Assembly (NCBI RefSeq): GCF_900199515.1 | Contig: NZ_LT963434.1 | Span: 1,203,272-1,235,271 of the forward strand | Reading direction: 5' to 3' | Length of the DNA: 32,000 nt | DNA from: Massilicoli timonensis | GTDB taxonomy: Bacteria; Bacillota_I; Bacilli_A; Erysipelotrichales; Erysipelotrichaceae | Shown: positions 3,632-30,530 of the stretch, piece after piece | How positions within the stretch are numbered: the first letter of the stretch is position 1 | Layout of the letters: every line of letters begins with the position of its first letter | Made by a program: the position numbers and the translations under genes | Notes under the pieces: model-generated | Seen by the model: the letters and a program-made list of their open reading frames with translations, nothing else | The model's database searches: none | What the model was told of the DNA's origin: nothing

Positions 3632-4363
3632 TCAAGACAGCACTGATCTTCTATTATAATCATATAGTACAAAGGAGTAAGCGAATAATGCAGAAGCAAC
3701 TCCTGCCAGCTCCAACAAAAGGATCGGCGATTGAAAATGAGAAAGAAAAGGCATCAGCCGCAAGATATGACTAGGCAAAGTGCTTGTCATGATGTAGTTG
3801 GTGTGAAAGAGCTGGTTGAATAGGAACACGAGCAGAAAGACAAAGTTTGCCTTGATGATCGCCGGCACTATATCTTTTCGCTCCACCCGCCACTGTAAAA
3901 CAAATAAACAGTAAAATACCGCAATCAGGAAAAAATGATGGGAGATGAAATACTGCCAGTACAGAAAACGGTCAAATCCGCAGGTAAGATCAGGTAAAAG
4001 AATGGCAGGCAGCGGACCGGCAAAAGCAAAGAAATAAAGCCAGTGAAACATCTCTTTACGGTTTGTGACCAATGCATACATGAATAAGTAACCGCTGATG
4101 AAGCAGAAATGAAGAGGAAGATGCACATGAAAATCCCAAGTACCGGTATATAGCTTCAAGCCATAATAGACCGTCATATTCAAAAACATGATACCGGCAA
4201 AGAGATAGCGCATTTGTTCACGAAAACGCCACTTCATTAAACGAAAGCGGAAGCGATAAAGCAAGTAAACTGCCAGTATCAAAACCGCTATGGTAAGCAG
4301 ATGGAGCCAGCCAAAAAGGGAGAAGCCGATCAACCCGTCGGTATCACTGAAAAAGGTATTCAT
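3632..4363 (-). CDS. YwaF/TIGR02206-family integral membrane protein
   Basis: Polytopic hydrophobic protein of 243 aa with the family-typical LPLHFC motif. SD AAAGGAAG lies 7 nt before the ATG. Confidence 0.65.
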   Translation of the reverse strand: MNTFFSDTDGLIGFSLFGWLHLLTIAVLILAVYLLYRFRFRLMKWRFREQMRYLFAGIMFLNMTVYYGLKLYTGTWDFHVHLPLHFCFISGYLFMYALVTNRKEMFHWLYFFAFAGPLPAILLPDLTCGFDRFLYWQYFISHHFFLIAVFYCLFVLQWRVERKDIVPAIIKANFVFLLVFLFNQLFHTNYIMTSTLPSHILRLMPFLSHFQSPILLLELAGVASALFAYSFVLYDYNRRSVLS

Positions 4364-4755
4364 AAAATCACTTCCTTTCTTCTTTTACAGTATAAAAGAA
4401 AAAAGTAAAGATTCCCTCTTAAAAAATATTAAGAATTTCAAAAGAATTAAAAAAGAAATAATCATAGACATTGATTTCCAAGCAAAAAAAGACCAATACG
4501 GCATAGGCAAAGACGAACCGCCATTGTATCACTTTTTCTCCTAATCATATATCTATGATCGTGAGCCTGCAATGCGTTCTATCTTTACAGATAACGCAAT
4601 CGTATTTTTTATAAATTTTATTTCTTATGATCGATCGCATACATATCGTCCTTCTCACAACATATTTTTACATTTGTTTTTACCTGTTGTTTCTTTCTTT
4701 TAGAAGCCAGTTACGCTATACTATAAAGTAGAAGCAAACGACAGGAGGCGGCCGT

Positions 4756-7413
4756 ATGAACCTTTATGAGATCCCTGAAAATGCCACGATTCTTGCACCG
4801 AGTTACCTGCATCCTTTTTTACAATACCGCTTGTTGAAACAGCACAAAAATCTGTTTGACCTGCACATGAAAACCCCGCAGGCCTTTTTAACAGAAACGA
4901 TCGGCAAAGAAGTCAATGAAACCGCAGTCTTATGGCAGTATTATCACAAGATCAAAGAAATACTGCCTGCTTTGCATATCTTAAAACGAATTGCGCCTAC
5001 CTATGCGTTTCTAAGTGAAGTGCACCGATTTTTAGTAAAACGGGAGCAATTCGCATTTGACCTTTCCACCTTGCCTAACCAAAGTGAAGTACAGCGCGAG
5101 CTCGCTTTGATCCTGCATGCACTGGCAGATCTCGCTATCATGCTCGACCCCGCAAGCACCTCATGCAGCGTGCTGCTATCAACAAAGCGCGATCTCAGCA
5201 ATGTCTATATTTTAGATTGCGGCTATTCCTTCACGCAGCAACAACAGATAGAAGCATTGTATGCATTAGGTGCAAAGCGCATCGACTGGTATGCGTACAA
5301 ACCGAAGCTCCATTTTTATCACAGCATCAATAAACGGCAGGAAATAGAAAGTGTCGCCGACCTTATCTTAACGAAACAATATCGGGCAGAAGACGTACAG
5401 ATCACCGTTTGTGATGATTCCTATAAGCCTTTTATCAAACAGATCTTTTCCCGACATCAGATCCCCCATACCATCTTATTTGAACAGCGTGCCTCTTTAG
5501 GCATGAAGGCGTTTGTGCTGTTATTGACGTATGCCATGACGCCAGATCGCGCACACTTGCTCGCTTTGTTGGATGCTTCCTTGTTTCCGATCAAGCATCT
5601 GCATGCGCTCAGCACCTATCTGCTCATCTTTGAAAAAGAACTGCATGATTCTTTTACCCATATGGAACAAGCTGTGATCAGCGATGATATTCTCTCCGCT
5701 TATGAAGTGGAAGAATTAAAGCAGATCGAACAAAAAGCACGCATTGCCAAGGAAGAATTGTTACTGCAACTGGTTCCGCTGCAACAAGACGATCTGCCTG
5801 CTTTGTTTCACCACTGCTATGATCTGCTTGCCCAAAACCGCGCCTATCAAAGCGCTTTGCCACAGATACAGACGATCTTGCAGGACAGTATGCCTTATTT
5901 GAATGAAAAAGAAGATCTTTCTTTTTTACTGGCAATATGTGATTCCTTTATGAAACAAGAACGCTGTGAGCACTATGAGGGGGTCATGATAACCGACCTC
6001 AATAAGCCGCTGCTGCATACGCCGATACATATCATCATGGGCTGCGATCAGAAACATTATCCTGCATTCAGCGGAGAAAAAGGCTTTTTTGATGAAAGCT
6101 ACATGGAACAGGTTGCTTATCCCGCTTTAGAGAAGCGCTATGCGCATGCACTGAAACGATTAGAAAAGCACCATCATAATGCACAGGAACTGTATCTGTT
6201 CTATGCACAGGGCGATTTTAAGGGAAAAAGTCAAGAGGCGGCGCCGGAAATCGAACTGCTTGCCGATAGGACATCTGTCCTTTATCCTTTATCCCAGCAT
6301 GATCATGAACGGCAAGAAGAAATTTGTTTGCGGGAAACAACGGCACGGCAGTTATTTACCCCCGACCAGATATTAAAGGGAAGTATCTCAGCATTTGAAC
6401 GCTATGTGAACTGTCCGTTTTCCTATTTTGTGCGCTATGGACTGGGGATCAAAGAACCGTTGGATGTGAGCTTCAATGTCGCCAAGATCGGTACCTTATC
6501 CCATTATGCCATGGAACAGATGACACGTCATTACCAAAAATCCTATACCAAGCATGAAGAGGCGCTGCTTCCTTATCTGGAAAGCAAAATACAGGAAATC
6601 ATGCAGGTTTATCCAAACAAAGAAGTGCTTTTATCCAATATCTTGCAGCGTTTGCATCAAAACTTACAGGTACTGCTGGGATTGTTAGACGATATGGAAG
6701 AACAGACTTCCTATGCGCCCGCTGCCTTTGAACACCGCTTTGAGGAAGAAATCCCGACCAATCAAGGCATTTTGATCCGTATTAGCGGTGTGATCGACCG
6801 TATTGACTTTTATGAACATTTTTTACGCATCATCGACTATAAGAGCAGTGCCAAAGTGCTCTCTTTACAAAATGTCTTATCAGGGAAACAATTACAGCTG
6901 CTCACCTATGCCTATGTTGCACAAAAGCAGTTTCACAAAGATGTCGCAGGCGCTTATTATCAGTCTTTGAAGAATGAAAGCATCCCTTTTCCTTATGGCA
7001 AGATCAAACGCAGACCGGTGGCTTTCCACGTTTACGAAGAGGCTGATGCACTGCGAGACAAATTAAAGAAAAGTGGCTTAAAGGGCTGGACGACATGTGA
7101 ATTTTTAGAGGCGCTTGATCATGACGGTACGCACATCAACGGTTTTTCCCAAAATAAAGACGGTGCGATACAGGCACGTACGATCTATTCTATGGAAGGG
7201 ATCAGCGAAGTGCTGTTGCAGCTCTATGATGCGATCGTAAAACAGATGATGAGCGGTGTGATCGCGCCCGCACCGATCAAAGATGCCTGCCTGTTCTGTC
7301 ATTATCATGACATCTGCCGCTATCAGGGCAATAATCGAGAACTAAAAGCATTGATCGAAGAACTGCCGGAGCATTTTTACATCAAAGGAGGAAAGCAGCA
7401 TGAAATGGAATGA
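4756..7413 (+). CDS. addB: helicase-nuclease AddAB subunit B (short form, no N-terminal Walker A)
   Basis: C-terminal PD-(D/E)XK nuclease motif (GVIDRIDF...RIIDYKSS) flanked by the Fe-S cysteines (YVNCPF ... CLFCHYHDIC). SD AGGAGG. The 3' end overlaps addA by 14 nt. No GxxGxGKT at the N-terminus. Confidence 0.9.
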   Translation: MNLYEIPENATILAPSYLHPFLQYRLLKQHKNLFDLHMKTPQAFLTETIGKEVNETAVLWQYYHKIKEILPALHILKRIAPTYAFLSEVHRFLVKREQFAFDLSTLPNQSEVQRELALILHALADLAIMLDPASTSCSVLLSTKRDLSNVYILDCGYSFTQQQQIEALYALGAKRIDWYAYKPKLHFYHSINKRQEIESVADLILTKQYRAEDVQITVCDDSYKPFIKQIFSRHQIPHTILFEQRASLGMKAFVLLLTYAMTPDRAHLLALLDASLFPIKHLHALSTYLLIFEKELHDSFTHMEQAVISDDILSAYEVEELKQIEQKARIAKEELLLQLVPLQQDDLPALFHHCYDLLAQNRAYQSALPQIQTILQDSMPYLNEKEDLSFLLAICDSFMKQERCEHYEGVMITDLNKPLLHTPIHIIMGCDQKHYPAFSGEKGFFDESYMEQVAYPALEKRYAHALKRLEKHHHNAQELYLFYAQGDFKGKSQEAAPEIELLADRTSVLYPLSQHDHERQEEICLRETTARQLFTPDQILKGSISAFERYVNCPFSYFVRYGLGIKEPLDVSFNVAKIGTLSHYAMEQMTRHYQKSYTKHEEALLPYLESKIQEIMQVYPNKEVLLSNILQRLHQNLQVLLGLLDDMEEQTSYAPAAFEHRFEEEIPTNQGILIRISGVIDRIDFYEHFLRIIDYKSSAKVLSLQNVLSGKQLQLLTYAYVAQKQFHKDVAGAYYQSLKNESIPFPYGKIKRRPVAFHVYEEADALRDKLKKSGLKGWTTCEFLEALDHDGTHINGFSQNKDGAIQARTIYSMEGISEVLLQLYDAIVKQMMSGVIAPAPIKDACLFCHYHDICRYQGNNRELKALIEELPEHFYIKGGKQHEME

Positions 7414-10400
7414 AGCACAGTTAAAAGCCATTACGACAAGAGATAAAAATGTGCTGGTTTCCGCATCGGCGGGGAGCGGCAAGACGACCGTGCTGATAGA
7501 GCGTTTGATGCGCCGTATCCTTGACGATCAGATCCCGCTTTCTTCCATCTTGGCAATGACTTATACCGATGCCGCTGCCAATGAAATGAAAAAACGACTG
7601 GCAAAGCAGCTGCAAAGCCGTTTACAGGAAGCCGATGATGAACAAACACGCGCATATATCCGCAAGCAGCTTTCCTTGCTTCCCGACGCCAATATCTCAA
7701 CGATCCATTCATTTTGTTTATCGATCGTGAAAAAGTATTATTATGTGACCGATCTAACGCCAAAGCAGGTGGAAACGATCTTAGATCCTTCCCTGCTTGC
7801 CATTTATGAGCAGGAAGCCTGTGAAGAGGTGCTGCATGAGGCAATGGCGCAAAACGATGAGGACATGCAAAAACTTTGTGCGTTATTTTCACCGCGGGCT
7901 GAAAATGATGAGGCGCTGAAGCAGGCGATCTTTTCCTTATCGCAAGCCGCATCTTCTTTCGTCGATGAACAGGCTTATTTACAAATGTGTATTGACAACT
8001 ATCAGCCGATCACTTCTTTTCAAGAACTGCCGGAAACGATCTATCAGGCTTTTTTCGATTACTTAACATCACAGCTCAGTATTTACAGCGCACAGTACGA
8101 TGCCCTCGCCATGCGTTTCACCTATCGTGAAGAAGCAACAGAAAAGCAGCGTACTGCATTAACCAGTAAACAGGTCGGCATTGCGGCGATGAAAAAAGCG
8201 TTAGACCAAAAGGACTATGATCTGTTTCGGGAGCAGCTGATCGCCTGTGCAAAAGTGATCCTGCCGGCCAATCCCGACAAAGCAAACGATCCGGAATATG
8301 ATCAGCTACGCAAACAGATCCAAGAGCTGGAAGAACGGCTGCTGGCACAGCTTTATTCCAAGGAAGAACTGTTTGCGCAAATCAGTGAACAGCGCCCGTT
8401 GATCCGAAAGCTATGTGAATTGACAAGCGCCTATCAAAAACGCTTTTTGATGAAAAAGAAACAGCAGCAGGGAATGGACTTTCACGATATGGAAAGTTAT
8501 GCGCTCTCTATCCTGCAAGAGCATGAAGAGATCCGAAACGATTACCGCATGCAGTTTGCGGAAATCATGGTCGATGAGTTTCAGGATGCCAATGACGTAC
8601 AGAATGTTTTGGTGAATTTGATCGCCAGAGGAAACAATGTATTTCGAGTGGGCGATATTAAGCAGTCCATTTACGGTTTCCGTCATGCCAAGCCATCGAT
8701 CATGCGCGATCTCATCACACATCGAGGGGCACAGGATGAAGTCATCTATTTATCAAACAACTATCGTTCCAAACAGCTGCTGATCGACTTCAATAATGCA
8801 CTTTATGAGGAATTGATGAATACCGATGATTTCACACCGGCCTTTCATCAGGAAGATATTGCATATGGCGGCACACCGGCACAGTTACAAGACAACCAGC
8901 CGATCATTTTTCATAAGCTGATGTGGAAAGAATTATCGGTGCAGCTCCCCGCTTCGATCAGCAACCCGGCGTTAAAAGCAGATTACATCGCCAAAGAGAT
9001 CGCAAGGCTCCATGAAGAAAAACGATGCAAGTGGAAAGATTTTGTCGTGCTGGCACGCTCCAATTCGATCAAGGCAGAGATGAAAAAAGCCTTTTCCGCA
9101 TACCGCATTCCCTTCTTTATTGATGCAAAGTCCGGCTTCTATGAATCTTACGGCGTTTCCTGTATTCTTTCCTACTTACGCGCCTGTGTCGATCCTTTTG
9201 ACAATATCGCATTGGTCGCCGCACTGACTTCGCCTTTATTTGCGGTTTCTTTCGAAGAGCTGGCAAAGTGGAAGCAGGCCATGCGGCAGGAACAGGAATA
9301 TTCGTATTATGCGTATTTGAAAAAACATCCTTGTGACGGCTTTTCTGCTTTCCTTGCGCATCATCAAACGATCCTGCACGCTTCCTTGAAAGATCTGTTG
9401 AATGAACTCTATGAAACCAACGCTTTTTACTTAGCGCATACAAGCGTACAGGAAAAGACCAATCTCGATCTGCTATATGAAATGGCATGTGATTTTGAAC
9501 GGCAGGAAGGCTTTGGGGTAACCGGCTTTTTGCGCTATGTGGAAACGCTGAAGCAGCAGGAAAGCGCCGAAGCGCTGCCAATCGGCAGTGAAGATGATGT
9601 CGTGCGGGTCATGAGCATTCATCAATCAAAAGGCTTACAGTTTAAGATCGTCTTTTTGTGGTCAACCGTTACGTTCCCGGCATTGGAATCCAAAGATCTG
9701 ATGATCTGTGACAATGAATTGGGCATTGCGATGGATCAGATCGTATTGCCGATGCGTTATCGTAAAGATACGATCATGCGCATGGCGATGGAGCACAAGA
9801 AAAACAAAGAAGAGTTGGAAGAAGAAATGCGCATTTTATATGTAGCGACAACGCGTGCACAGGATGAAATGCACATTGTCGACGTCATTACCGATGAAAG
9901 CAGGCTTGCCAGATCTGCAATCACGTCTCCTTTCCTTTACTTGCGAAGAGGCTATACCTCATGGTTATGCAGCGCTTCGCATCTAAAACCCGGCATGGTG
10001 CTCACCAAAACAGTCAGCAAGACCTGGCAAACAGAGAAAAAATCCTATCTGCAAAGCAAACCACAGCAGGATCATTTTCAAAAGCTTACTTATGCGTACG
10101 CACATCAGCCGCTTTTCTATGAAACACCGACAGCGAAAAAAAGCGATGCCCTGCCAAAACTCACGTTACAAAACGAGGGCATGCAGTATGGTACGGCCTT
10201 GCACGCCTATATAGAAAAGCTGGGTGATCTGCCATGGGACAGCGCAAAGATCCAAGCTGTTTCACAAAAATGGGAGCTTCCTTATCAAACCGGAATTGAA
10301 AACGCCCTGCTTGCCTTAGCGAAGCAGCCGCTCTTTCAAAAGGCACAGCAGATGCCTAAGCGCTACTATGAAGCGCCGTTTGCCATTTTACAAGATGATA

Positions 10401-11423: not shown

Positions 11424-12293
11424 ATGCACGAAATTTACCGCATGATCGTATGCGATTTGGACAATACTTTAGTAGACAGTAAAAAACAGCTCTCTGCCGC
11501 CACGATTCAGGAAATGATTCGTTTACAGGAAAAAGGCTATCTCTTGGTCATTGCCAGTGGACGCTTTATCCATGAAATCGAACCGGTTGCCAAGGCTTTA
11601 CAGATCGAAGAACACCATGGCATCATCATCGCCTGCAACGGCTTTGAGATCTATGATAAAAAAGATAACAGCTATCATCGTTTTACCCCCATCAGTGCAA
11701 AGGAAAGTGAAGAACTGATCCGTTTTGCCAAAAGCAAGCACTGCTGTACTTATCTCTATGATGAGGACGGCTACTATTTCATACAGACCGGCAGTATCCG
11801 CAGGATCATGCGCATCGCCAAGCATTTGTTTCCACTGTTTCGCAAGCTGCACCCGAAGATCGGTCATGGCATTGACCGCTATGAGCAGATGCAGATCTTA
11901 AAGGAAGAACCGCACTTCGAGCATTCCTTTCAAAAATTATGCTTTCTCTCTCATAAGCCGAAACATATCGTAGCGTTAGAAACGGCAATTCATCGCCGCT
12001 ATGGCAGGACTTATCAATTCTTTTACGAAAATCCCTTTGTAAGCGAAATTACGAAAAGTGATGTATCAAAGCGACACGCAGTGGAATACATTTGTCAAAA
12101 ATACGGCTATGAGATGAAACAGGTCATCGCTTTTGGCGACAACGGCAACGATTTACTGCTGTTAGAAGCAGCAGGACACGGTGTTACGATGAAAAATGCT
12201 TCTCGCTATATCAGAGCACAAGCCAATCATATCACTGAGGATACTTGCGATGAGGACGGTGTGATCCATTATTTGAAAAAGATGAACCTATAA
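11424..12293 (+). CDS. Cof-type HAD-IIB family hydrolase
   Basis: MIVCDLDNTL (motif I), SGR (motif II) and FGDNGNDLLLL (motif IV). I chose ATG 11424 (SD GAAAGGA about 8 nt upstream) rather than the tracked 11268 start. Confidence 0.85.
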   Translation: MHEIYRMIVCDLDNTLVDSKKQLSAATIQEMIRLQEKGYLLVIASGRFIHEIEPVAKALQIEEHHGIIIACNGFEIYDKKDNSYHRFTPISAKESEELIRFAKSKHCCTYLYDEDGYYFIQTGSIRRIMRIAKHLFPLFRKLHPKIGHGIDRYEQMQILKEEPHFEHSFQKLCFLSHKPKHIVALETAIHRRYGRTYQFFYENPFVSEITKSDVSKRHAVEYICQKYGYEMKQVIAFGDNGNDLLLLEAAGHGVTMKNASRYIRAQANHITEDTCDEDGVIHYLKKMNL

Positions 12294-12341
12294 TGACTAC
12301 ATCGGCAGATACGTCGATTTCCCTTTCTAATCAATCAATTG

Positions 12342-12380
12342 AAAAAACCGCACTTCCCCTTTTTCGAGATCTGCGGTTTT
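12342..12380. terminator. bidirectional terminator between the HAD gene and the FAD-dependent gene
   Basis: AAAACCGCA pairs with TGCGGTTTT (9 bp perfect) around a 19-nt loop. The flanks are A-rich and T-rich. Confidence 0.5.
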
Positions 12381-12386
12381 ATTGTT

Positions 12387-13781
12387 TTAATGCTTTTGCT
12401 CGTTTTTCTCTTTTCTTGTCTGCACAAGATGTCTTGCGACATATACCCCACTGGCGGAAGCATGGGACAGCGAATGTGTAACCCCGCTGCAATCACCGAT
12501 CACATATAGTCCTTTGTGTTTGGTTTCTAAGTTCTCGTCGATTTCCACTTCCAAATTATAGAATTTCACTTCTACTCCATATAACAGCGTTTCATCGCTG
12601 GCGGTACCCGGCGCCACTTTGTCCAGCGCATAGATCATTTCGATGATGTCATCCATCTGACGTTTCGGAATGACCAGCGACAGATCGCCCGGTGTAGCGG
12701 AAAGTGTCGGCTTTAAGAAACTGGAACGAATACGGCTTTCCGTAGAACGCTGTCCACGGATCAGATCACCGAATCGCTGTACGATCACGCCGCCTCCTAA
12801 CATATTGGATAAGCGCGCAATGCTTTCCCCATATTCATTACTGTCCTTAAACGGTTCGGAAAAGTGATTGCTGACAAGCAGGGCAAAATTCGTATTTTCC
12901 GTATAACGTGATGGATCCTCATAACTATGCCCGTTTACCGTTACGATGCCATTCGTATTTTCACTGACCACGACTCCTCTTGGATTCATGCAGAATGTTC
13001 TGACATTATCTTGAAATTTCTTCGTGCGATACACCAGCTTGCTCTCATAAAGTTCATCGGTCAAATGTGAAAACACTTCCGCCGGCAGTTCCACCCGTAC
13101 ACCGATGTCTACTCGGTTGGATTTGGTATGGATTCCCAATGCAGAACAGATGCTTTCCATCCACTTGCTGCCGCTTCTGCCTGTCGATACGATGCAGTAC
13201 GGTGCGTCAAAGCATTCCTCGCCGGCAATGACACGATAACCGTCTTTCGTTTTTTCAATCTGTTTGGCATAGCAGCGGAAATAAAAATCCACATGCTCGG
13301 ATAAATGTGCGTACAGATTCTGCAATACGATGTAATTGACATCGGTTCCCAAGTGGCGCACCTGCGCATCAAGCAGATGCAAGTCATTTTGCAGACAGAT
13401 CTTCTTTAATCTGGAATTAGCGGTCGAATACAGCTTTGTTCCTTCTCCGCCGAATTGTAAATTCAAAGCATCGACATAACGCATCAAAGACAGCGCTTCT
13501 TCTCTGCCGATGTGTTCATAAAGCGTTCCGCCGAACTGGTTGGTAATATTGTACTTCCCATCTGAAAAAGCACCGGCACCGCCAAAACCGTTCATGATCG
13601 CACAGGTAGAACAGCCGATACAGCGCTTGATCTTTTTGTTGTCGATGGGACAATGGCGTTTCTCAAGCGGATTCCCTGCTTCCAGTACCGCGATCTTTAA
13701 TGCCGGATCCTGTTTCAACAGCTCATAGGCTGAGAAAATACCGCCCGGTCCAGCACCGATAATCAAAACATCATATTTCAT
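12387..13781 (-). CDS. NAD(P)/FAD-dependent oxidoreductase (COG2509-type uncharacterised FAD-dependent dehydrogenase)
   Basis: MKYDVLIIGAGPGGIFSAYEL dinucleotide-binding fold, then HCPI...CIGCSTCAIMNGFGGAGAFSDGK, typical of COG2509. The tracked start 13787 is TTG, so I use ATG 13781. Confidence 0.85.
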   Translation of the reverse strand: MKYDVLIIGAGPGGIFSAYELLKQDPALKIAVLEAGNPLEKRHCPIDNKKIKRCIGCSTCAIMNGFGGAGAFSDGKYNITNQFGGTLYEHIGREEALSLMRYVDALNLQFGGEGTKLYSTANSRLKKICLQNDLHLLDAQVRHLGTDVNYIVLQNLYAHLSEHVDFYFRCYAKQIEKTKDGYRVIAGEECFDAPYCIVSTGRSGSKWMESICSALGIHTKSNRVDIGVRVELPAEVFSHLTDELYESKLVYRTKKFQDNVRTFCMNPRGVVVSENTNGIVTVNGHSYEDPSRYTENTNFALLVSNHFSEPFKDSNEYGESIARLSNMLGGGVIVQRFGDLIRGQRSTESRIRSSFLKPTLSATPGDLSLVIPKRQMDDIIEMIYALDKVAPGTASDETLLYGVEVKFYNLEVEIDENLETKHKGLYVIGDCSGVTHSLSHASASGVYVARHLVQTRKEKNEQKH

Positions 13782-21820: not shown

Positions 21821-22025
21821 ATCTCAGCCTTTACTTATCACCCGGGAAATAAATGCGATCGTCATAAGACCAAACAGATTGAAAAACAGGCTTTTCATAG
21901 AAAAACCTGCTATACAAAATAAGAGCATTCTCTTTCATTTTCGATGATGCACACACCCTGCTCTTCATCAAACACTGCGCTTCCCTCCTTTTGTTCATCA
22001 AACCATAAAGATAGACAAACTGCAC

Positions 22026-22253: not shown

Positions 22254-22403
22254 TTATGCTTCAGACAGAATATGATTCTCGCTCATGCTTGTTCCCGTTC
22301 TATTCTCACTGATCGGGTCGTAGTCATATTGATTTCGCGTTAAACTTTCGGAAGATCTTTTTCTAAGACGGGTCCATCGCTGTTCCCTTTCCTGCTGCCT
22401 CAT
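22254..22403 (-). CDS. candidate small ORF (49 aa from ATG 22403; 61 aa if TTG 22439), highly charged
   Basis: SD-like TAGGTGA lies 7 nt before ATG 22403. The peptide is MRQQEREQRWTRLRKRSSESLTRNQYDYDPISENRTGTSMSENHILSEA. No family recognised, so it may be fortuitous. Confidence 0.2.
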   Translation of the reverse strand: MRQQEREQRWTRLRKRSSESLTRNQYDYDPISENRTGTSMSENHILSEA

Positions 22404-22619
22404 GCATCTTTCACCTACATTTCCGCAGGCATCTTTCAATTCCGGCCTTCCTGCCGTATTTTCCTATATTCGCAAAACACAATTATGATTGTTATTCTCT
22501 TTTCCCTGTATGCCCGTACATGCTCTACAAGTCATGTCTTTCTTACAGAATCATAATGGTTTTGCTAAAATCGATCACCCATGTTCTCACACCTTTCCGT
22601 GCTTTTTCTTTACACCTTT

Positions 22620-22656: not shown

Positions 22657-22686
22657 CATAACTTGTTGTTTTATGTCCTTAACTTG
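22657..22686 (-). promoter_or_regulatory. LytTR-type operator: 9-bp direct repeats CAAGTTAAG / CAAGTTATG separated by 12 bp
   Basis: The minus strand reads CAAGTTAAG (22686-22678), GACATAAAACAA, then CAAGTTATG (22665-22657), ending 9 nt upstream of the -35. This matches the AgrA-type consensus [TA][AC][CA]GTTN[AG][TG] at 8/9 and 7/9 positions, with the canonical 12-bp spacer. Confidence 0.55.
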
Positions 22687-23353
22687 CATCATCGGGTTGA
22701 AATGTTTGCAATGTTTCATAAAAACGATGCTTTTTGCTGCGAGAAATCGGGATGCTTTCCTGATTGATCAGCTCCACCTCATCTCCACGCACCGCTTTCA
22801 CACTGCGCAAATTCAATAAAAACGCATGATGTACCCGCACAAAGCCATCTTCCTGCCACTTTGCTTCTTTTTCCTTCAAAGTGCCGCGCTCTTGAAAAAT
22901 CCCGTATTTCGTATGATAAAGCAAATATTTTTCCTGCTTTTCCACATAGTAAATATCCCGTAAACGGATCTGCATGCTCGCCCCTTGCGTATGGATCAGA
23001 TAATATTGCTTCCCTTTTGCACACTGTTTCAGCAAATGCAGACAAAAAGGCAATTCTTTTTGAAAATCATGCAGATAGAGAAAAGTTGTCTGATTATATT
23101 TTCGGCTTTGGTAAGACGCGCTGTCCACAAATAAAACAATCGATGCTTTTGTAAATAATGTATCCCGAAAACGCGGGAGATCCATTTTTTCCGATAAGAT
23201 CAGCACATCATAAGGCAAGGCCTGCGCCGCCTTGGCATACTGCGCCAATTTCGCAAACCAGCGAAAAGAAAATGCGGTATCCTCCAACTGTACTCCCAGT
23301 GTAAAAATCATGTCTTTTGCTTTTTCTGCTTCCGCAACGACCGCAATGCGCAT
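22679..23353 (-). CDS. orphan LytTR-family regulator with degenerate (pseudo-)receiver domain
   Basis: C-terminal LytTR domain (IRLRDIYYVEKQEKYLLYHTKYGIFQERGTLKEKE...GFVRVHHAFLLNLRSVKAV). The N-terminal REC-like fold has AEAE in place of the DD/DE acidic pocket (MRIAVVAEAE) and Ser at the phospho-acceptor position (DVLILSEKMDLP). I prefer start ATG 23353 (MRIAVV) over the tracked 23416. Confidence 0.8.
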   Translation of the reverse strand: MRIAVVAEAEKAKDMIFTLGVQLEDTAFSFRWFAKLAQYAKAAQALPYDVLILSEKMDLPRFRDTLFTKASIVLFVDSASYQSRKYNQTTFLYLHDFQKELPFCLHLLKQCAKGKQYYLIHTQGASMQIRLRDIYYVEKQEKYLLYHTKYGIFQERGTLKEKEAKWQEDGFVRVHHAFLLNLRSVKAVRGDEVELINQESIPISRSKKHRFYETLQTFQPDDAS

Positions 23354-24968: not shown

Positions 24969-25003
24969 TTCCTCTGGCTGCATCACTTCTTTCCAATAGA
25001 AAA

Positions 25004-25059
25004 ATCCCCTTAACCTGCACTGACTTGAAACAGTATCTGTTAAGAGGATCTTATTTTTT
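25004..25059. terminator. bidirectional terminator between convergent rluA-like and cofE-like genes
   Basis: ATCCCCTTAAC pairs with GTTAAGAGGAT (10/11). T-runs follow on both strands. Confidence 0.55.
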
Positions 25060-25071
25060 AATAATCGTCGC

Positions 25072-26265
25072 TTAGTTAGTAAAGTTGTCGAAATAGCCTT
25101 GAATCAAAATAATCGGTGTTCCTTTATCACCGCTGCCGCTTGTTAAGTCGCATAATGAACCGATCAAGTCCGTCAGCTTACGCGGTGTCGTACCCTGTGA
25201 AGCCATATTGCCCTTTAAGTCATTGTCTTTCTTCTGGATACTTTCTTTGATCGCTTTCTGCAATGCTTCTCCGCTTAGTTCCGCAAAGTCATTGTCCGCG
25301 AGATATTTTAATTTCAATTCATTCGGTGTACCTTCCAGGCCTTCTGTATAAGCAGGACTGACAACCGGATCGGCTAATTCCCAGATCTTTCCGATCGGAT
25401 CTTTGAAGGCGCCGTCGCCATATACCATTACTTCTACATGTTTGCCGGTCTTATCCAACAGTTGTTTCTGAATATCCAAAACGAAATCCTGGCATTCTTT
25501 CGGGAACAGTTTAACCGTATCTTCTGTCGCTTTGTTAGAACCGAGCAGACCATATTTTTCATTGTAGCCACTGCCTTCAATAGAAGCATTCATGATATCG
25601 TCCATGCCGAATACTTTTTCCGCTCCGGCTGCTTTTAACAGACGTTTTGTGCGGGCACGCGTATGAATATCGCAAGTCAGCACATTTTTTGTATATTGCA
25701 GGATCGCTTTCGGATCATTGGCAAACACCACTTCCACTTCCGCGCCTGCTTCTTCGATTACCGAGGAATAGTAGGCTACATAGTCGATTCCGGTAAATGG
25801 ATGTTTGTTTTCACCGAATAATTTACGATAAGTTTCCAGTGTCAGCACATCGCTGTATGGATTGATGCCGTGTTCATCTAACTGATCAAAGCTTACCAGC
25901 TCATTTCCTACTTCATCAGATGGATAGCTTAACATCAGCACGACTTTTTTTACGCCCGCCGCAATGCCTTTGAGACAGATCGCAAAACGATTACGGCTCA
26001 GGATCGGGAAGATCACACCGATCGTCGCATCTTTTCCGAATTTTTGTTCTACATCTTTGGCGATTGCCGCAACGCTTGCATAATTGCCCTGTGATCTTGC
26101 CACAACAGATTCTGTTACCGCGACAATATCACGATCACGCAATTCAAACCCTTCTGATTGTGCCGCTTCCAATACAGAAGTTACCACAATATCAGCCAGT
26201 GCGTCGCCTTCACGAATGATCGGGCAGCGGACACCTCTGGATACAGTACCGATTTTTCTTTCCAT
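25072..26265 (-). CDS. F420-0:gamma-glutamyl ligase-like (CofE/F420_ligase domain) protein, long 397-aa form
   Basis: [14 protein letters not shown] and [18 protein letters not shown] resemble the CofE N-terminal motifs. The C-terminal [16 protein letters not shown] resembles the CofE G..D..iPvvivRG motif. SD AGGAGAG. Confidence 0.7.
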
Positions 26266-26308
26266 AGTTCAACTCTCCTGTCTTGTATTTTCAATAAATA
26301 CCGTAATT

Positions 26309-26337
26309 ATTATACTCGCAGACCTACTATCTGTAAA
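26309..26337 (-). promoter_or_regulatory. near-consensus promoter for the cofE-like gene
   Basis: The minus strand reads TTTACA - 17 nt - TATAAT. Confidence 0.6.
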
Positions 26338-26421
26338 GTTATTTTTTATGCTTTCCATCAGTTTTTACATGCTGTTTTCAAAAACATTTTCAATAATGAT
26401 GTAAATTGTTTCAATGCATTT

Positions 26422-27165
26422 CTAACGATGCACCAGCTCTGCCAGTTTCGCTACTTTCCTTTGATCCACGGCATCATAACATTCCGCCTGTTCTCCCTGC
26501 GCATACGCATAAGAAACATCGCCTTGTATGGTCGTAGGATCCTTGATCCATGTTTTACAGCTGCTGTGCACCTGTTTTATGCCCTGTGTCAATAGTAATT
26601 CTACATTTCCCTCATTCACTCCACAGCCGGCCAATATTTCGATCTGATCGCCATATCGCTTTTGTAACATCATTAACCGATCCATTCCTTCTGTTACACT
26701 GCGGCTCAATCCACTGGTCAAAACACGATCGACACCTAATTCGATCAGACATCGGATGCTCGCTTCTCCATCCTTTACACAGTCAAAGGCACGATGAAAG
26801 ACCGCCTCTTTTTGATGCGCATGGATCAGTTCGACCATCTTCTTCGTATGAGCGCGATCAATTTTATGATCTGCATGCAGGAAGCCAAACGCAATGCCAT
26901 CTGCCCCCGCCTGCAACAGTGCTTCTGCCTGTAAATACAGCAGTTCACATTCTGTTTCATCATAGCAAAATCCGGCGCCGCGCTCTCTTACCATGCAGAC
27001 GACAGGAATCGACACCGCTTTTTTTACCGCTTCTAAAATAACGATGCTCGGTGTCAGACCGCCCAAATGCAGCGCAGTGTTCAATTCAATTCGATCCGCT
27101 CCGCCGGCCTGTGCCGCCAAAGCGTCTTGGTAACTGCCGCAGCATACTTCCAGTTTATTCTTCAT
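26422..27165 (-). CDS. cutC: CutC family (copper homeostasis-like, TIM barrel) protein
   Basis: LEVCCGSYQDALAAQAGGADRIELNTAL...GGLTPS is the CutC signature N-terminus. I prefer ATG 27165 over the tracked GTG 27177. It overlaps the M20 gene's 3' end. Confidence 0.85.
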   Translation of the reverse strand: MKNKLEVCCGSYQDALAAQAGGADRIELNTALHLGGLTPSIVILEAVKKAVSIPVVCMVRERGAGFCYDETECELLYLQAEALLQAGADGIAFGFLHADHKIDRAHTKKMVELIHAHQKEAVFHRAFDCVKDGEASIRCLIELGVDRVLTSGLSRSVTEGMDRLMMLQKRYGDQIEILAGCGVNEGNVELLLTQGIKQVHSSCKTWIKDPTTIQGDVSYAYAQGEQAECYDAVDQRKVAKLAELVHR

Positions 27166-29399: not shown

Positions 29400-30509
29400 T
29401 TAATATTTCAGATCAATGATCTTTTCCCATGTAAACTGTGGATCACCGAAATGTCCATAACAGCTCGTCTTTGCATAGATTGGTTTTCTTAGATCCAGTT
29501 CCTTCAAAATATTGCCTACTTCAAAGTTAAAATTCCGCTTGATGATCGCTAAGATCTCTTCATCGCTCTTCGTACCGGTGCCAAAGGTTTCTACCATCAA
29601 GGATACCGGTTTACTTTTTCCGATCGCATAGGCAACCTCGATCTCACATTTATGCGCCAAACCGTGCGCAACGATATTCTTCGCGACATAGCGGCAATAA
29701 TACGCAGCGCTTCTGTCTACTTTCGTCGGGTCCTTTGATGAGAAACATCCGCCGCCGATCCTGCCCATTCCGCCATAAGTATCACATACGATCTTTCTTC
29801 CCGTCGTACCGGAATCGCCGAAGCTGCCGCCTACGACAAAGCTGCCGCTTGGATTGATCAAAAACTTGGTAGAGGCATCGATCAGCTCCGGTTCAATACA
29901 TGGTGCAATGACTTCCTTCATGATCAGCTCTCTGATTTCTTCCTGCGTCGCTTCTTTTTTATGCTGGGTCGATACCACGATCGTATCAATGCGTTTGATG
30001 TGATCATCCTCATATTCCACCGAAACCTGTGTCTTGCCATCCGGTCCTAAAATAGAATGTGGATCGCTCTTTCGCACTTTTGCCAACTGGCGTGCCAATT
30101 TATGCGCGTAATAAATCGGCGCCGGCATGTATTCATCACTTTCTGCGCAGGCAAAGCCAAACATGATGCCCTGATCTCCCGCACCGATCTCTCCTTCGTT
30201 TTCCTGCGCCGTTACCGCGTGGTTGATCTCCGAAGACTGTTTGTTTACCTTTACCATCACTTCATATGTTTCTTCATACCCGATCTTCTTGATCGTATCT
30301 TTGGCGATCTGTTCATAGTCGATCTTCGCGCTTGTATTCGCTTCTCCGTAAATTAAGACAAAATCGTCTTTGATCGTCGCTTCGACCGCCATTTTGCTGT
30401 TAGGATCCTGCCGCAGCGCTTCATCTAAGATACTGTCCGCAATCTGATCACAGATCTTATCTGGATGTCCTTCCGTAATGCTTTCTGATGTAAATAAATA
30501 ATCTCTCAT
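29400..30509 (-). CDS. metK: S-adenosylmethionine synthase (methionine adenosyltransferase)
   Basis: FTSESITEGHPDKICDQIADSILD, GAGDQGIMFGFA and GGGCFSSKDPTKVDRSAAY. ATG 30509 (MRDYLFTSES) is preferred over the tracked TTG 30530. Confidence 0.95.
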   Translation of the reverse strand: MRDYLFTSESITEGHPDKICDQIADSILDEALRQDPNSKMAVEATIKDDFVLIYGEANTSAKIDYEQIAKDTIKKIGYEETYEVMVKVNKQSSEINHAVTAQENEGEIGAGDQGIMFGFACAESDEYMPAPIYYAHKLARQLAKVRKSDPHSILGPDGKTQVSVEYEDDHIKRIDTIVVSTQHKKEATQEEIRELIMKEVIAPCIEPELIDASTKFLINPSGSFVVGGSFGDSGTTGRKIVCDTYGGMGRIGGGCFSSKDPTKVDRSAAYYCRYVAKNIVAHGLAHKCEIEVAYAIGKSKPVSLMVETFGTGTKSDEEILAIIKRNFNFEVGNILKELDLRKPIYAKTSCYGHFGDPQFTWEKIIDLKY

Positions 30510-30530
30510 GCTCCTCGTCCTTTCTTTCAA

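Follow-up and report, generated by a model that had tools for sequence, protein, structure and literature searches.

The element considered here lies in Massilicoli timonensis, a member of the Erysipelotrichaceae from the human gut, within a 32-kb stretch of DNA that was analysed as a whole and is termed the window in the following. On its minus strand, the gene for a LytTR-type regulator is followed by two short direct repeats and a near-consensus promoter, from which a structured RNA of about 600 nt appears to be transcribed toward rsmG. None of 19 conspecific assemblies has a called gene in the 970 bp that separate the stop codon of the regulator gene from rsmG. The regulator gene and the features that adjoin it are as follows:

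22679..23353, minus strand: regulator gene, 224 aa, LytTR DNA-binding domain and predicted pseudo-receiver N-terminal domain
22686-22678, minus strand: distal repeat CAAGTTAAG, about -73 to -65 from the predicted transcription start (read from the sequence)
22677-22666, minus strand: inter-repeat spacer GACATAAAACAA, 12 nt (read from the sequence)
22665-22657, minus strand: proximal 9-mer CAAGTTATG (read from the sequence)
22666-22654, minus strand: proximal operator unit ACAAGTTATGCCA, which includes CAAGTTATG and lies 6 bp from the -35 hexamer (from the family matrix described below)
22656-22648, minus strand: CCAAAGCAC, 9 nt between the proximal 9-mer and the -35 hexamer
22647-22642, minus strand: -35 hexamer TTTACA (promoter scan)
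22625-22620, minus strand: -10 hexamer TATAAT, after a 16-nt spacer (promoter scan)

A preliminary description of the site had read the minus strand as two 9-bp repeats with a 12-bp spacer, ending 9 nt before TTTACA-N16-TATAAT, the first of them overlapping the stop codon of the LytTR gene. The sequence reads exactly so: distal and proximal 9-mers are identical at 8/9 positions at an offset of 21 bp, and the TAA (22681-22679) falls within the distal repeat. The promoter scores 11/12 in a consensus scan, with a perfect -10 hexamer, and is one of two promoters in the window that reach at least 11/12; the other (26337-26309, minus strand, TTTACA-N17-TATAAT) is located just 5' of an F420-ligase-like gene (25072-26265, minus strand). 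Neither the sequence nor the consensus scan revealed a terminator between the regulator gene and the promoter. The heptamer CAAGTTA occurs twice in the window, both times at the operator site, and the exact two-box pattern with up to three mismatches is present in 21 of 100 shuffles. The significance of the site derives from its position, with a strong promoter and a LytTR gene adjoining, and from its conservation, not from the repeat itself. Conservation within the species is uninformative in this respect because of its low statistical power (p~0.17): among 19 conspecific loci, neither 9-mer nor the -35 or -10 hexamer carries a single-nucleotide polymorphism and three polymorphisms fall elsewhere in the operator-promoter stretch, the assemblies diverging by about 1% and showing, at the site, little more than one alternative haplotype.

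The regulator and its probable operator in related loci

Gene callers place the start of the regulator at an upstream ATG (23416, 245 aa), but the family alignment begins at MRIAVV, corresponding to position 23353, and a Shine-Dalgarno (SD)-like GGTGA also favours this start, so that the 224-aa protein assumed in the preliminary description is backed. Its assignment as a LytTR protein is equally sound, with a Pfam match to PF04397 covering residues 148-236 (E=3.7e-18; score 66 bits, cutoff 22.6). The N-terminal half of the window protein has no match to the receiver family PF00072 at E<=0.1 and no sequence match to any solved receiver. According to precomputed Pfam annotations, members of its subfamily carry the LytTR domain only, and more distant matches carry PF00072.

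A full-length alignment to canonical proteins combining a receiver with a LytTR domain (REC-LytTR) was obtained at the profile level. In an alignment with five of them, the window protein has serine at the place of the phospho-acceptor aspartate of F(L/F)D(I/V)xMP, which closes strand beta-3, and the subfamily has H, H, H, Q, N or S there; the acidic pair after strand beta-1 is lost, DD/DE being replaced by AE or ET. The AlphaFold model (predicted local distance difference test score, pLDDT, 90) has ComE as its best full-length match. Its C-terminal domain superimposes on the LytTR domain of AgrA (3bs1, 4xqn, 4g4k) with a root-mean-square deviation of 1.9 A and template-modelling (TM) scores of 0.80-0.84, and its N-terminal half shows a weak resemblance to receivers and pseudo-receivers, with fold matches to 2hqr and 2j48. 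Judged from these comparisons, the regulator is best described as a pseudo-receiver LytTR protein that should not be phosphorylatable at the canonical aspartate and should act independently of a kinase. The lack of a kinase gene would thereby be explained.

Consistent with this, the label 'orphan' attached to the regulator earlier proved apt. Called genes and Pfam matches within +/-6 kb comprise no histidine kinase (HisKA/HATPase), no agrB or agrD and no bacteriocin gene, as had been stated. What defines a phosphorylatable response regulator of the AgrA, VirR or ComE type, i.e., a PF00072 match, the aspartate with its acidic pair and an adjacent kinase gene, was found in no instance here. A kinase is encoded nearby in one of eight related loci (L035), where a histidine kinase gene is located two genes 5' of the regulator gene; in the same locus, and in no other that was compared, a canonical REC-LytTR response regulator gene directly follows the RNA (these features occupy positions 1-2143 and 4733-5446).

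Searches with the single protein sequence returned its own-species cluster and remote matches, nothing more, and the same query found no match in a collection of one genome per species, which does not include M. timonensis and in which the closest RsmG is 60% identical. Relatives were found by anchoring on the neighbouring RsmG; the regulators themselves have diverged too far for seeding with exact 8-mer peptides. In Amedibacillus dolichus, the homologue at the corresponding position is 24% identical over its full length. A two-protein profile retrieved about 50 clusters (90% identity) at E<=1e-43, all of approximately 226 aa and with LytTR as sole Pfam domain, followed by a gap of about 27 orders of magnitude in E-value before canonical REC-LytTR response regulators appeared. 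An exhaustive profile search among 1.84 billion representatives yielded 33 clusters (50% identity) at E<=1e-30, below which canonical regulators aligned over the full length. On these grounds, the regulator appears to belong to a small and distinct subfamily of the Erysipelotrichaceae, within which the window protein is a divergent outlier (24-34% identity to the family).

We compared 16 distinct loci from at least four genera, eight of them anchored on the protein and the others recovered from metagenomes via a 20-nt RNA pattern. All 16 show the same order, namely a homologous regulator gene, two direct repeats at a distance of 20-21 bp and a promoter. Gapless alignment on the -35 hexamer defines a repeat unit of approximately 13 nt with the consensus ACC(A/G)(A/G)TT(T/A)TTCCA, summarised as ACCRRTTWTTCCA. 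Its proximal copy extends from -19 to -7 relative to the -35 hexamer, i.e., it ends 6 bp before it, and the distal copy is situated 20 bp (once 21 bp) further upstream. The -35 hexamer is TTTACA in 14 loci and TTCACA or TTTACG in the other two, the -10 hexamer TATAAT is invariant, and the spacer between them measures 16 nt in nearly all loci, rarely 17. Published LytTR operators consist of direct repeats 11-13 bp apart that are located 4-11 bp upstream of the -35 element (PMC6193735), a geometry that fits both the window (12-bp spacer, 9 bp from -35) and the family (6 bp from -35).

In M. timonensis the two copies differ in their agreement with the family. The proximal unit is identical to the unit ACCAGTTTTTCCA of locus L044 at 10/13 positions, and on a weight matrix to which the other species alone contributed and M. 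timonensis did not, it scores 12.6 bits, which ranks it first on its strand and second among about 64,000 window positions (top 3e-5). The distal copy occupies the slot of the family distal unit and reaches -10 to -12 bits on the same matrix; the CAAGTTA half is all it shares with the proximal copy, and its identity to the latter is the one argument in its favour. CAAGTTA would then represent the lineage-specific 5' half of the longer unit, and either specificity in M. timonensis has shifted to this half or the distal site is weak. Only in M. timonensis does the distal copy overlap the stop codon, probably incidentally; elsewhere in the family the distal unit begins 2-45 nt past the regulator stop.

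Phylogenetic footprinting, suggested in the preliminary description as a check, thus upheld the two-repeat and promoter architecture and the proximal unit but not the distal copy. The proposed likeness to AgrA sites likewise stands in part: the geometry agrees and the window 9-mers fit the AgrA-type pattern at 8/9 positions, but the conserved unit is a sequence of about 13 nt rather than a 9-mer. Both ACCAGTTTTTCCA and the CAAGTTATGCCA of the window resemble the VirR box, which we take to be CCAGTTNTNCAC; measured against this presumed consensus, the family unit looks more like a VirR box than like the AgrA 9-mer. The reading of the repeats as an operator, a predicted binding site, is supported, although the motif had to be revised and the distal site is weak.

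The operator appears to stay with the RNA promoter rather than with the regulator gene. In locus L040 a gene for a 510-aa HIRAN-domain protein (3742-5274) is found between the regulator gene and the operator/promoter, and in L053 the two are separated by a gap of about 1 kb (~908-1938). Autoregulation via the same operator was rejected: within 300 bp upstream of seven regulator genes, the best matrix dimer reached at most 0.8 bits as compared to 23-35 bits at the RNA promoters, and CAAGTTA was not found upstream of the regulator gene in the window.

The poor score of the distal box raises the question whether the M. timonensis repeat is a product of chance or a relic, in which case the promoter would work without the adjacent regulator and the latter would act elsewhere in the genome. 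This would be in keeping with the divergence of the regulator and with the frequency of comparable repeats, since 8/9 repeats at a 21-bp offset form seven clusters in the 32-kb window. We regard it as very unlikely, given that the proximal unit ranks so high exactly at the conserved slot, that polymorphisms among the 19 strains spare the boxes (zero versus three between them) and that regulator and RNA go together in all informative loci, including those with different neighbours (8/8 protein-anchored loci and 10/10 RNA-anchored loci with enough upstream sequence).

The predicted RNA downstream of the promoter

The promoter reads into a stretch for which the following features were determined or predicted:

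22613-22022, minus strand: predicted RNA of 592 nt with predicted ends, no called gene in any assembly
22594..22385, minus strand: structured 5' domain (folds, covariation, covariance model, nhmmer)
22582..22565, minus strand: mini-open reading frame (mini-ORF) ATG GGT GAT CGA TTT TAG (MGDRF*), preceded by SD-like GGTGTGAGAAC
22569-22549 / 22490-22472, minus strand: helix P1
22537-22533 / 22522-22518, minus strand: helix P2, with conserved apical ACUUGUAGAG
22456-22453 / 22446-22443, minus strand: hairpin Pa
22429-22425 / 22395-22391, minus strand: hairpin Pb, 3' strand placed by hand from the sequence of conserved block 4
22067-22057, minus strand: conserved 3' block AAAAUAAAUGG, just 5' of the terminator
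22052-22029, minus strand: terminator hairpin GCGGCAC-N10-GUGCCGC followed by UUUGUGCAGUUUG, fold -19.8 kcal/mol

Comparable units of 0.6-0.9 kb, poor in C (9-13%) and without a called gene, are present downstream of every family regulator; the composition in the window is 41% A, 27% G, 19% U and 13% C. Sequence past the -10 hexamer is conserved between genera whose RsmG proteins are merely 55-60% identical. The conserved start reads TATAAT-(A/G)AAGTGTAAAGAAA, an A-rich stretch and then GAGAGCGGUGAGAAxAUGGGAAC; it is followed by further blocks over about 250 nt, a variable middle and, at the 3' end, a second set of conserved blocks and a terminator. An nhmmer query with the A. dolichus unit recovered 22660-22394 of the window (E=1.2e-6). 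The terminator in the window, which the consensus scan did not list because its U-tract is weak, is homologous in position to strong terminators of the family units.

Folds and sequence comparison agree that the 5' domain is structured. RNAalifold and individual folds concur on nested helices P1b, P2 and P3 and on hairpins Pa, Pb and Pc, and at least seven helices show compensatory changes, among them those of the window. In the inner helices, 94-95% of cells are paired, as opposed to 19-53% when the partners are slid by 1-3 columns; covariation amounts to 0.37 and 0.42 versus at most 0.15 in the slid controls and was reached in none of 500 shuffles, values that derive from 8-13 sequences and from structures inferred from these same sequences. 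Because MAFFT cannot align the long-range outer helix, P1 was assessed in 12 species by alignment-free comparison of cognate and non-cognate duplex energies. Cognate duplexes averaged -11.5 kcal/mol and non-cognate ones -5.9 kcal/mol, a difference not reached in any of 20,000 permutations, and the species' own partner ranked first in 9 of 12 cases, the outlier being L055, which carries an insertion. A covariance model built without M. timonensis, L027 and L035 recovered L035 (E=5e-13) and the A. dolichus DSM 3991 locus L027 (E=2e-10), whose unit lies at ~5005-5640; its best match in the window, 22594-22454, is weak (22 bits, E~0.08). The minimum free energy of the window RNA is -131 kcal/mol, compared to -99.7+/-5.6 kcal/mol for shuffles (z=-5.6).

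These data also bear on the idea that the gap of about 0.9 kb is decaying DNA, such as the remnant of a pseudogene with a leftover promoter. The region indeed lacks an ORF and has an odd, purine-rich composition, but conservation of nucleotide blocks across genera as distant as stated above, compensatory changes in the helices, a conserved terminator and a fold far below that of shuffles make decay extremely improbable.

Several candidate identities of the unit were rejected. At the gathering threshold, Rfam 15 reported a riboswitch elsewhere in the window and nothing on the RNA unit, and permissive scans with the unit from four species gave just sub-threshold noise of the eukaryotic snoRNA and miRNA type, so that a known RNA family was dismissed. 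Block 4 is not coding, as a 2-nt indel distinguishes M. timonensis from L020 and the stems are kept. Conserved small proteins were dismissed as well: shared peptides are multi-frame artefacts of blocks conserved at the nucleotide level, and none is shared with M. timonensis. A CsrA-type sponge was discarded, GGA motifs being as frequent as expected from composition. The unit is not a cis-acting leader of a downstream gene either, since the lone ORF that follows it, in L055, is an insertion after which the conserved block recurs. This gene of about 210 aa with a signal-peptide-like N-terminus (~8110-8760 in the oriented locus, +220 to +861 from the -10 hexamer) is inserted in the 5' domain of the RNA; the conserved block is partly duplicated, and an intact block is found again about 900 nt downstream. 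Finally, a functional link to rsmG was rejected. Although the module is often located 5' of rsmG, it has other neighbours in L020, L035 and L039, so that the association reflects synteny, not function.

As shown by comparison of the sequences, the product of the promoter would be a discrete RNA that ends at a terminator of its own and lacks a conserved ORF, and regulator gene, operator, promoter and RNA would form one conserved module in gut Erysipelotrichaceae. A literature search for the regulator subfamily and for the RNA found no paper on either.

One coding element recurs at the foot of helix P1. A mini-ORF was found in each of the 12 species compared; it has six codons in 11 of them and five in M. 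timonensis, and an SD-like GGUGA and a short spacer precede it. Its stop codon is the first element of P1 in the 12 species, and as the stop varies between UAA, UAG and UGA, the 3' strand of the helix changes to match. Peptides are not conserved (MGDRF, MGTLAS, MGTFDR, MDNNDS). The 23-nt block comprising SD sequence and mini-ORF, GAGAGCGGTGAGAAGATGGGAAC, precedes secreted-protein genes in L055 and L056 and may be a portable leader. In L056 (oriented, 11803-12535), a very AT-rich contig, the block (MGTYVCF*) is located directly 5' of a gene for a 223-aa secreted protein and occurs without a LytTR gene or a family promoter.

These observations suggest that a ribosome loads at the mini-ORF, and they are also what would be expected if the downstream unit were mainly an mRNA, the mini-ORF or another small ORF being its product or a translational sensor and the structure resembling an attenuator. 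Presence of the mini-ORF in every species, its stop at the base of P1, the well-spaced GGUGA and the occurrence of the block in front of genuine secreted-protein genes all point in this direction. Against it stand the variability of the encoded peptides, the lack of a conserved ORF after the structure (that in L055 being inserted), the artefactual nature of the longer shared peptides, and 300-600 nt of RNA with conserved 3' blocks for which an mRNA would not account. We therefore consider an mRNA improbable, though a serious contender.

Proposed mechanism

Taking the evidence together, a LytTR regulator that works without a kinase probably binds the repeats and thereby governs the neighbouring promoter, from which a structured RNA of about 600 nt without conserved coding capacity would be made. 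A dimer of the regulator would occupy both boxes, in M. timonensis CAAGTTAAG and (A)CAAGTTATG(CCA) at a distance of 21 bp, from about -41 to -73, and contact RNA polymerase. It would thereby activate a near-consensus sigma-A promoter, the spacer of which is one short at 16 bp, with transcription starting at about 22613. The RNA might then act as the effector of the regulator, by analogy with AgrA-P3-RNAIII and VirR-VR-RNA.

SD-type stabilisers of 5' ends occur in Firmicutes. Ribosomes loaded via SD sequence and mini-ORF may accordingly stabilise the 5' end of the RNA or open its domain. A more far-reaching proposal, which we hold less likely than not, is that the RNA constitutes a new class of 0.6-0.9 kb in human-gut Erysipelotrichaceae and the sole dedicated output of a pseudo-receiver LytTR regulator, and that the ribosome on the mini-ORF ends at the foot of the main helix, so that translation opens or stabilises the RNA. 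The RNA would in that case be coupled to translation in its regulatory action and be more than a simple small RNA.

Activation of the promoter by the regulator and an effector role of the RNA have to be weighed against several points. Besides the failure of the distal box on the family matrix, the abundance of similar repeats in the window, the underpowered polymorphism pattern, the small and partly circular basis of the covariation analysis and the weak covariance-model match in the window, these concern the promoter and the RNA themselves. A promoter so near consensus (11/12) may need no activator, its spacer is short by one, whereas AgrA-type promoters are weak by virtue of long spacers (PMC4227749), and a trans-acting role for the RNA would be pure analogy.

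The strength of the promoter is also an argument for a different role of what would still be a genuine LytTR site, namely that the regulator represses or tunes a strong constitutive promoter or forms a roadblock to read-through from its own gene. The absence of a terminator between gene and promoter would fit such a function, as would the lack of an autoregulatory operator 5' of the regulator genes. On the other hand, the boxes lie wholly upstream of the -35 hexamer, in the position typical of LytTR activators (PMC6193735, PMC4227749), and a spacer kept at a non-optimal 16 bp suggests that a bound factor aids the promoter; repression or tuning is hence rather unlikely. Of the four alternatives considered, this one and an mRNA centred on the mini-ORF are alone in remaining serious.

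Genomic surroundings and relation to known systems

On one side, the module is neighboured by genes for PNPOx, RluD, an F420-ligase-like protein, CutC, a peptidase and an asparaginase, and on the other by those for RsmG, Noc, ParA, ParB and a Na/H exchanger, with rsmG-noc-parA-parB downstream; these are genes of the housekeeping kind. Strains vary 5' of rluD (window ~25000-27000 versus positions 1-1350 of L005-L018): in some M. timonensis strains an ABC-transporter pair (a 666-aa protein and an ATPase) replaces the F420-ligase-like gene, which the window and other strains keep. The Rfam match mentioned above is an S-adenosylmethionine riboswitch (RF00162, 30579-30666, minus strand, 46.4 bits, above the gathering score), located in an ordinary arrangement 5' of an S-adenosylmethionine synthetase gene (29400-30530, minus strand). 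Between rsmG and the terminator of the RNA, in a stretch of 300 bp, lies an ORF of 21 codons (21910-21975, minus strand) with a GTG start and the translation MFDEEQGVCIIENERECSYFV*, preceded at 7 nt by a strong SD sequence, AAGGAGGG, and followed by a hairpin that gave a sub-threshold 'U7' match in Rfam; the substitutions F2L and C9R in most conspecific strains indicate that it is apparently unconstrained.

In pathogens, LytTR regulators are best known for their place at the output end of peptide quorum-sensing systems (agr, VirSR, Com), where a regulatory RNA often mediates their effect. Apparently the same logic is found here in common gut commensals (Massilicoli, Amedibacillus, Longicatena and relatives), minus the kinase. 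A LytTR regulator that drives a regulatory RNA is known; the new elements are the predicted kinase independence of the regulator, the dedicated target beside it and the RNA as such. The only detectable target, in M. timonensis as scanned across the window, is the adjoining, previously undescribed, unusually long and C-poor structured RNA, and this conserved RNA is a more interesting result than the operator. It joins, as a candidate, the few large non-coding RNAs of bacteria to which no function has been assigned, and the module offers a route to understanding how pseudo-receiver LytTR proteins are switched. As the whole module, from regulator to terminator, fits within 1.6 kb and one of its hosts, A. 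dolichus DSM 3991, is available in culture as a type strain, the system is directly testable.

RNAIII is a structured regulatory RNA of about 0.5 kb that carries the short ORF hld. The AgrA-P3-RNAIII system of Staphylococcus aureus resembles the present one in repeat geometry, in a non-optimal promoter spacer and in a structured RNA with a short ORF. AgrA binds two direct repeats with a spacer of about 12 bp just 5' of a promoter with non-optimal spacing between -35 and -10 (PMC4227749). It differs in that a pseudo-receiver without phospho-acceptor aspartate is present here and no AgrC, AgrB or AgrD is encoded nearby; the absence of agrB and agrD also speaks against an agr-type quorum-sensing locus. 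The proximal box is centred at about -47 rather than about -60, the spacer measures 16 nt instead of 18-20, there is no divergent autoregulated operon, and the RNA is unrelated to RNAIII (no Rfam match), with an ORF of 5-6 codons.

In Clostridium perfringens, VirR boxes are two imperfect direct repeats of about 12 bp for which the spacing to the promoter is critical (PMC2688746), and three of five direct VirR targets are small RNA genes (PMC4877802). VirR with VR-RNA, VirT and VirU thus shares with the present system a LytTR regulator, direct repeats and small RNA targets, and the window protein has F-V-R-V-H-H-A in place of the FxRxHrS motif of VirR. Unlike VirR, which is phosphorylated (D57) by its cognate VirS, the window protein has neither the aspartate nor a kinase nearby. 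VirR targets are scattered, whereas the single detectable target here adjoins the gene of its regulator. At 0.6-0.9 kb, the present RNA is also longer, and it is unrelated.

Kinase-independent LytTR regulators are also found in the LytTR regulatory systems HdrRM and BrsRM of Streptococcus mutans, with repeats 11-13 bp apart and 4-11 bp from the -35 element (PMC6193735), i.e., with the same repeat geometry. In those systems, the regulator shares its transcript with a membrane protein that inhibits it, and it activates its own operon; no membrane-protein gene adjoins the regulator in the window or in related loci, the operator is located 3' of the regulator gene, and the protein has an additional receiver-like domain of about 120 aa. 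A receiver-like fold employed without canonical phosphorylation, the pseudo-receiver concept (PMC12632262), is shared with atypical regulators of the HP1043 type. CdtR of Clostridioides difficile is reported to be an orphan LytTR regulator whose gene is located next to its target genes (PMC4944984), as here, but the output of the present module is an RNA without a conserved ORF, not toxin or other protein genes.

Among large non-coding RNAs, OLE, GOLLD, ROOL and raiA are likewise several hundred nt long, with covarying helices, a narrow phylogenetic range and no ORF. The RNA described here has no match in Rfam 15, is much poorer in C and less densely structured, and it differs from the large non-coding RNAs in an unusual trait, its tie to a dedicated transcription factor gene and operator.

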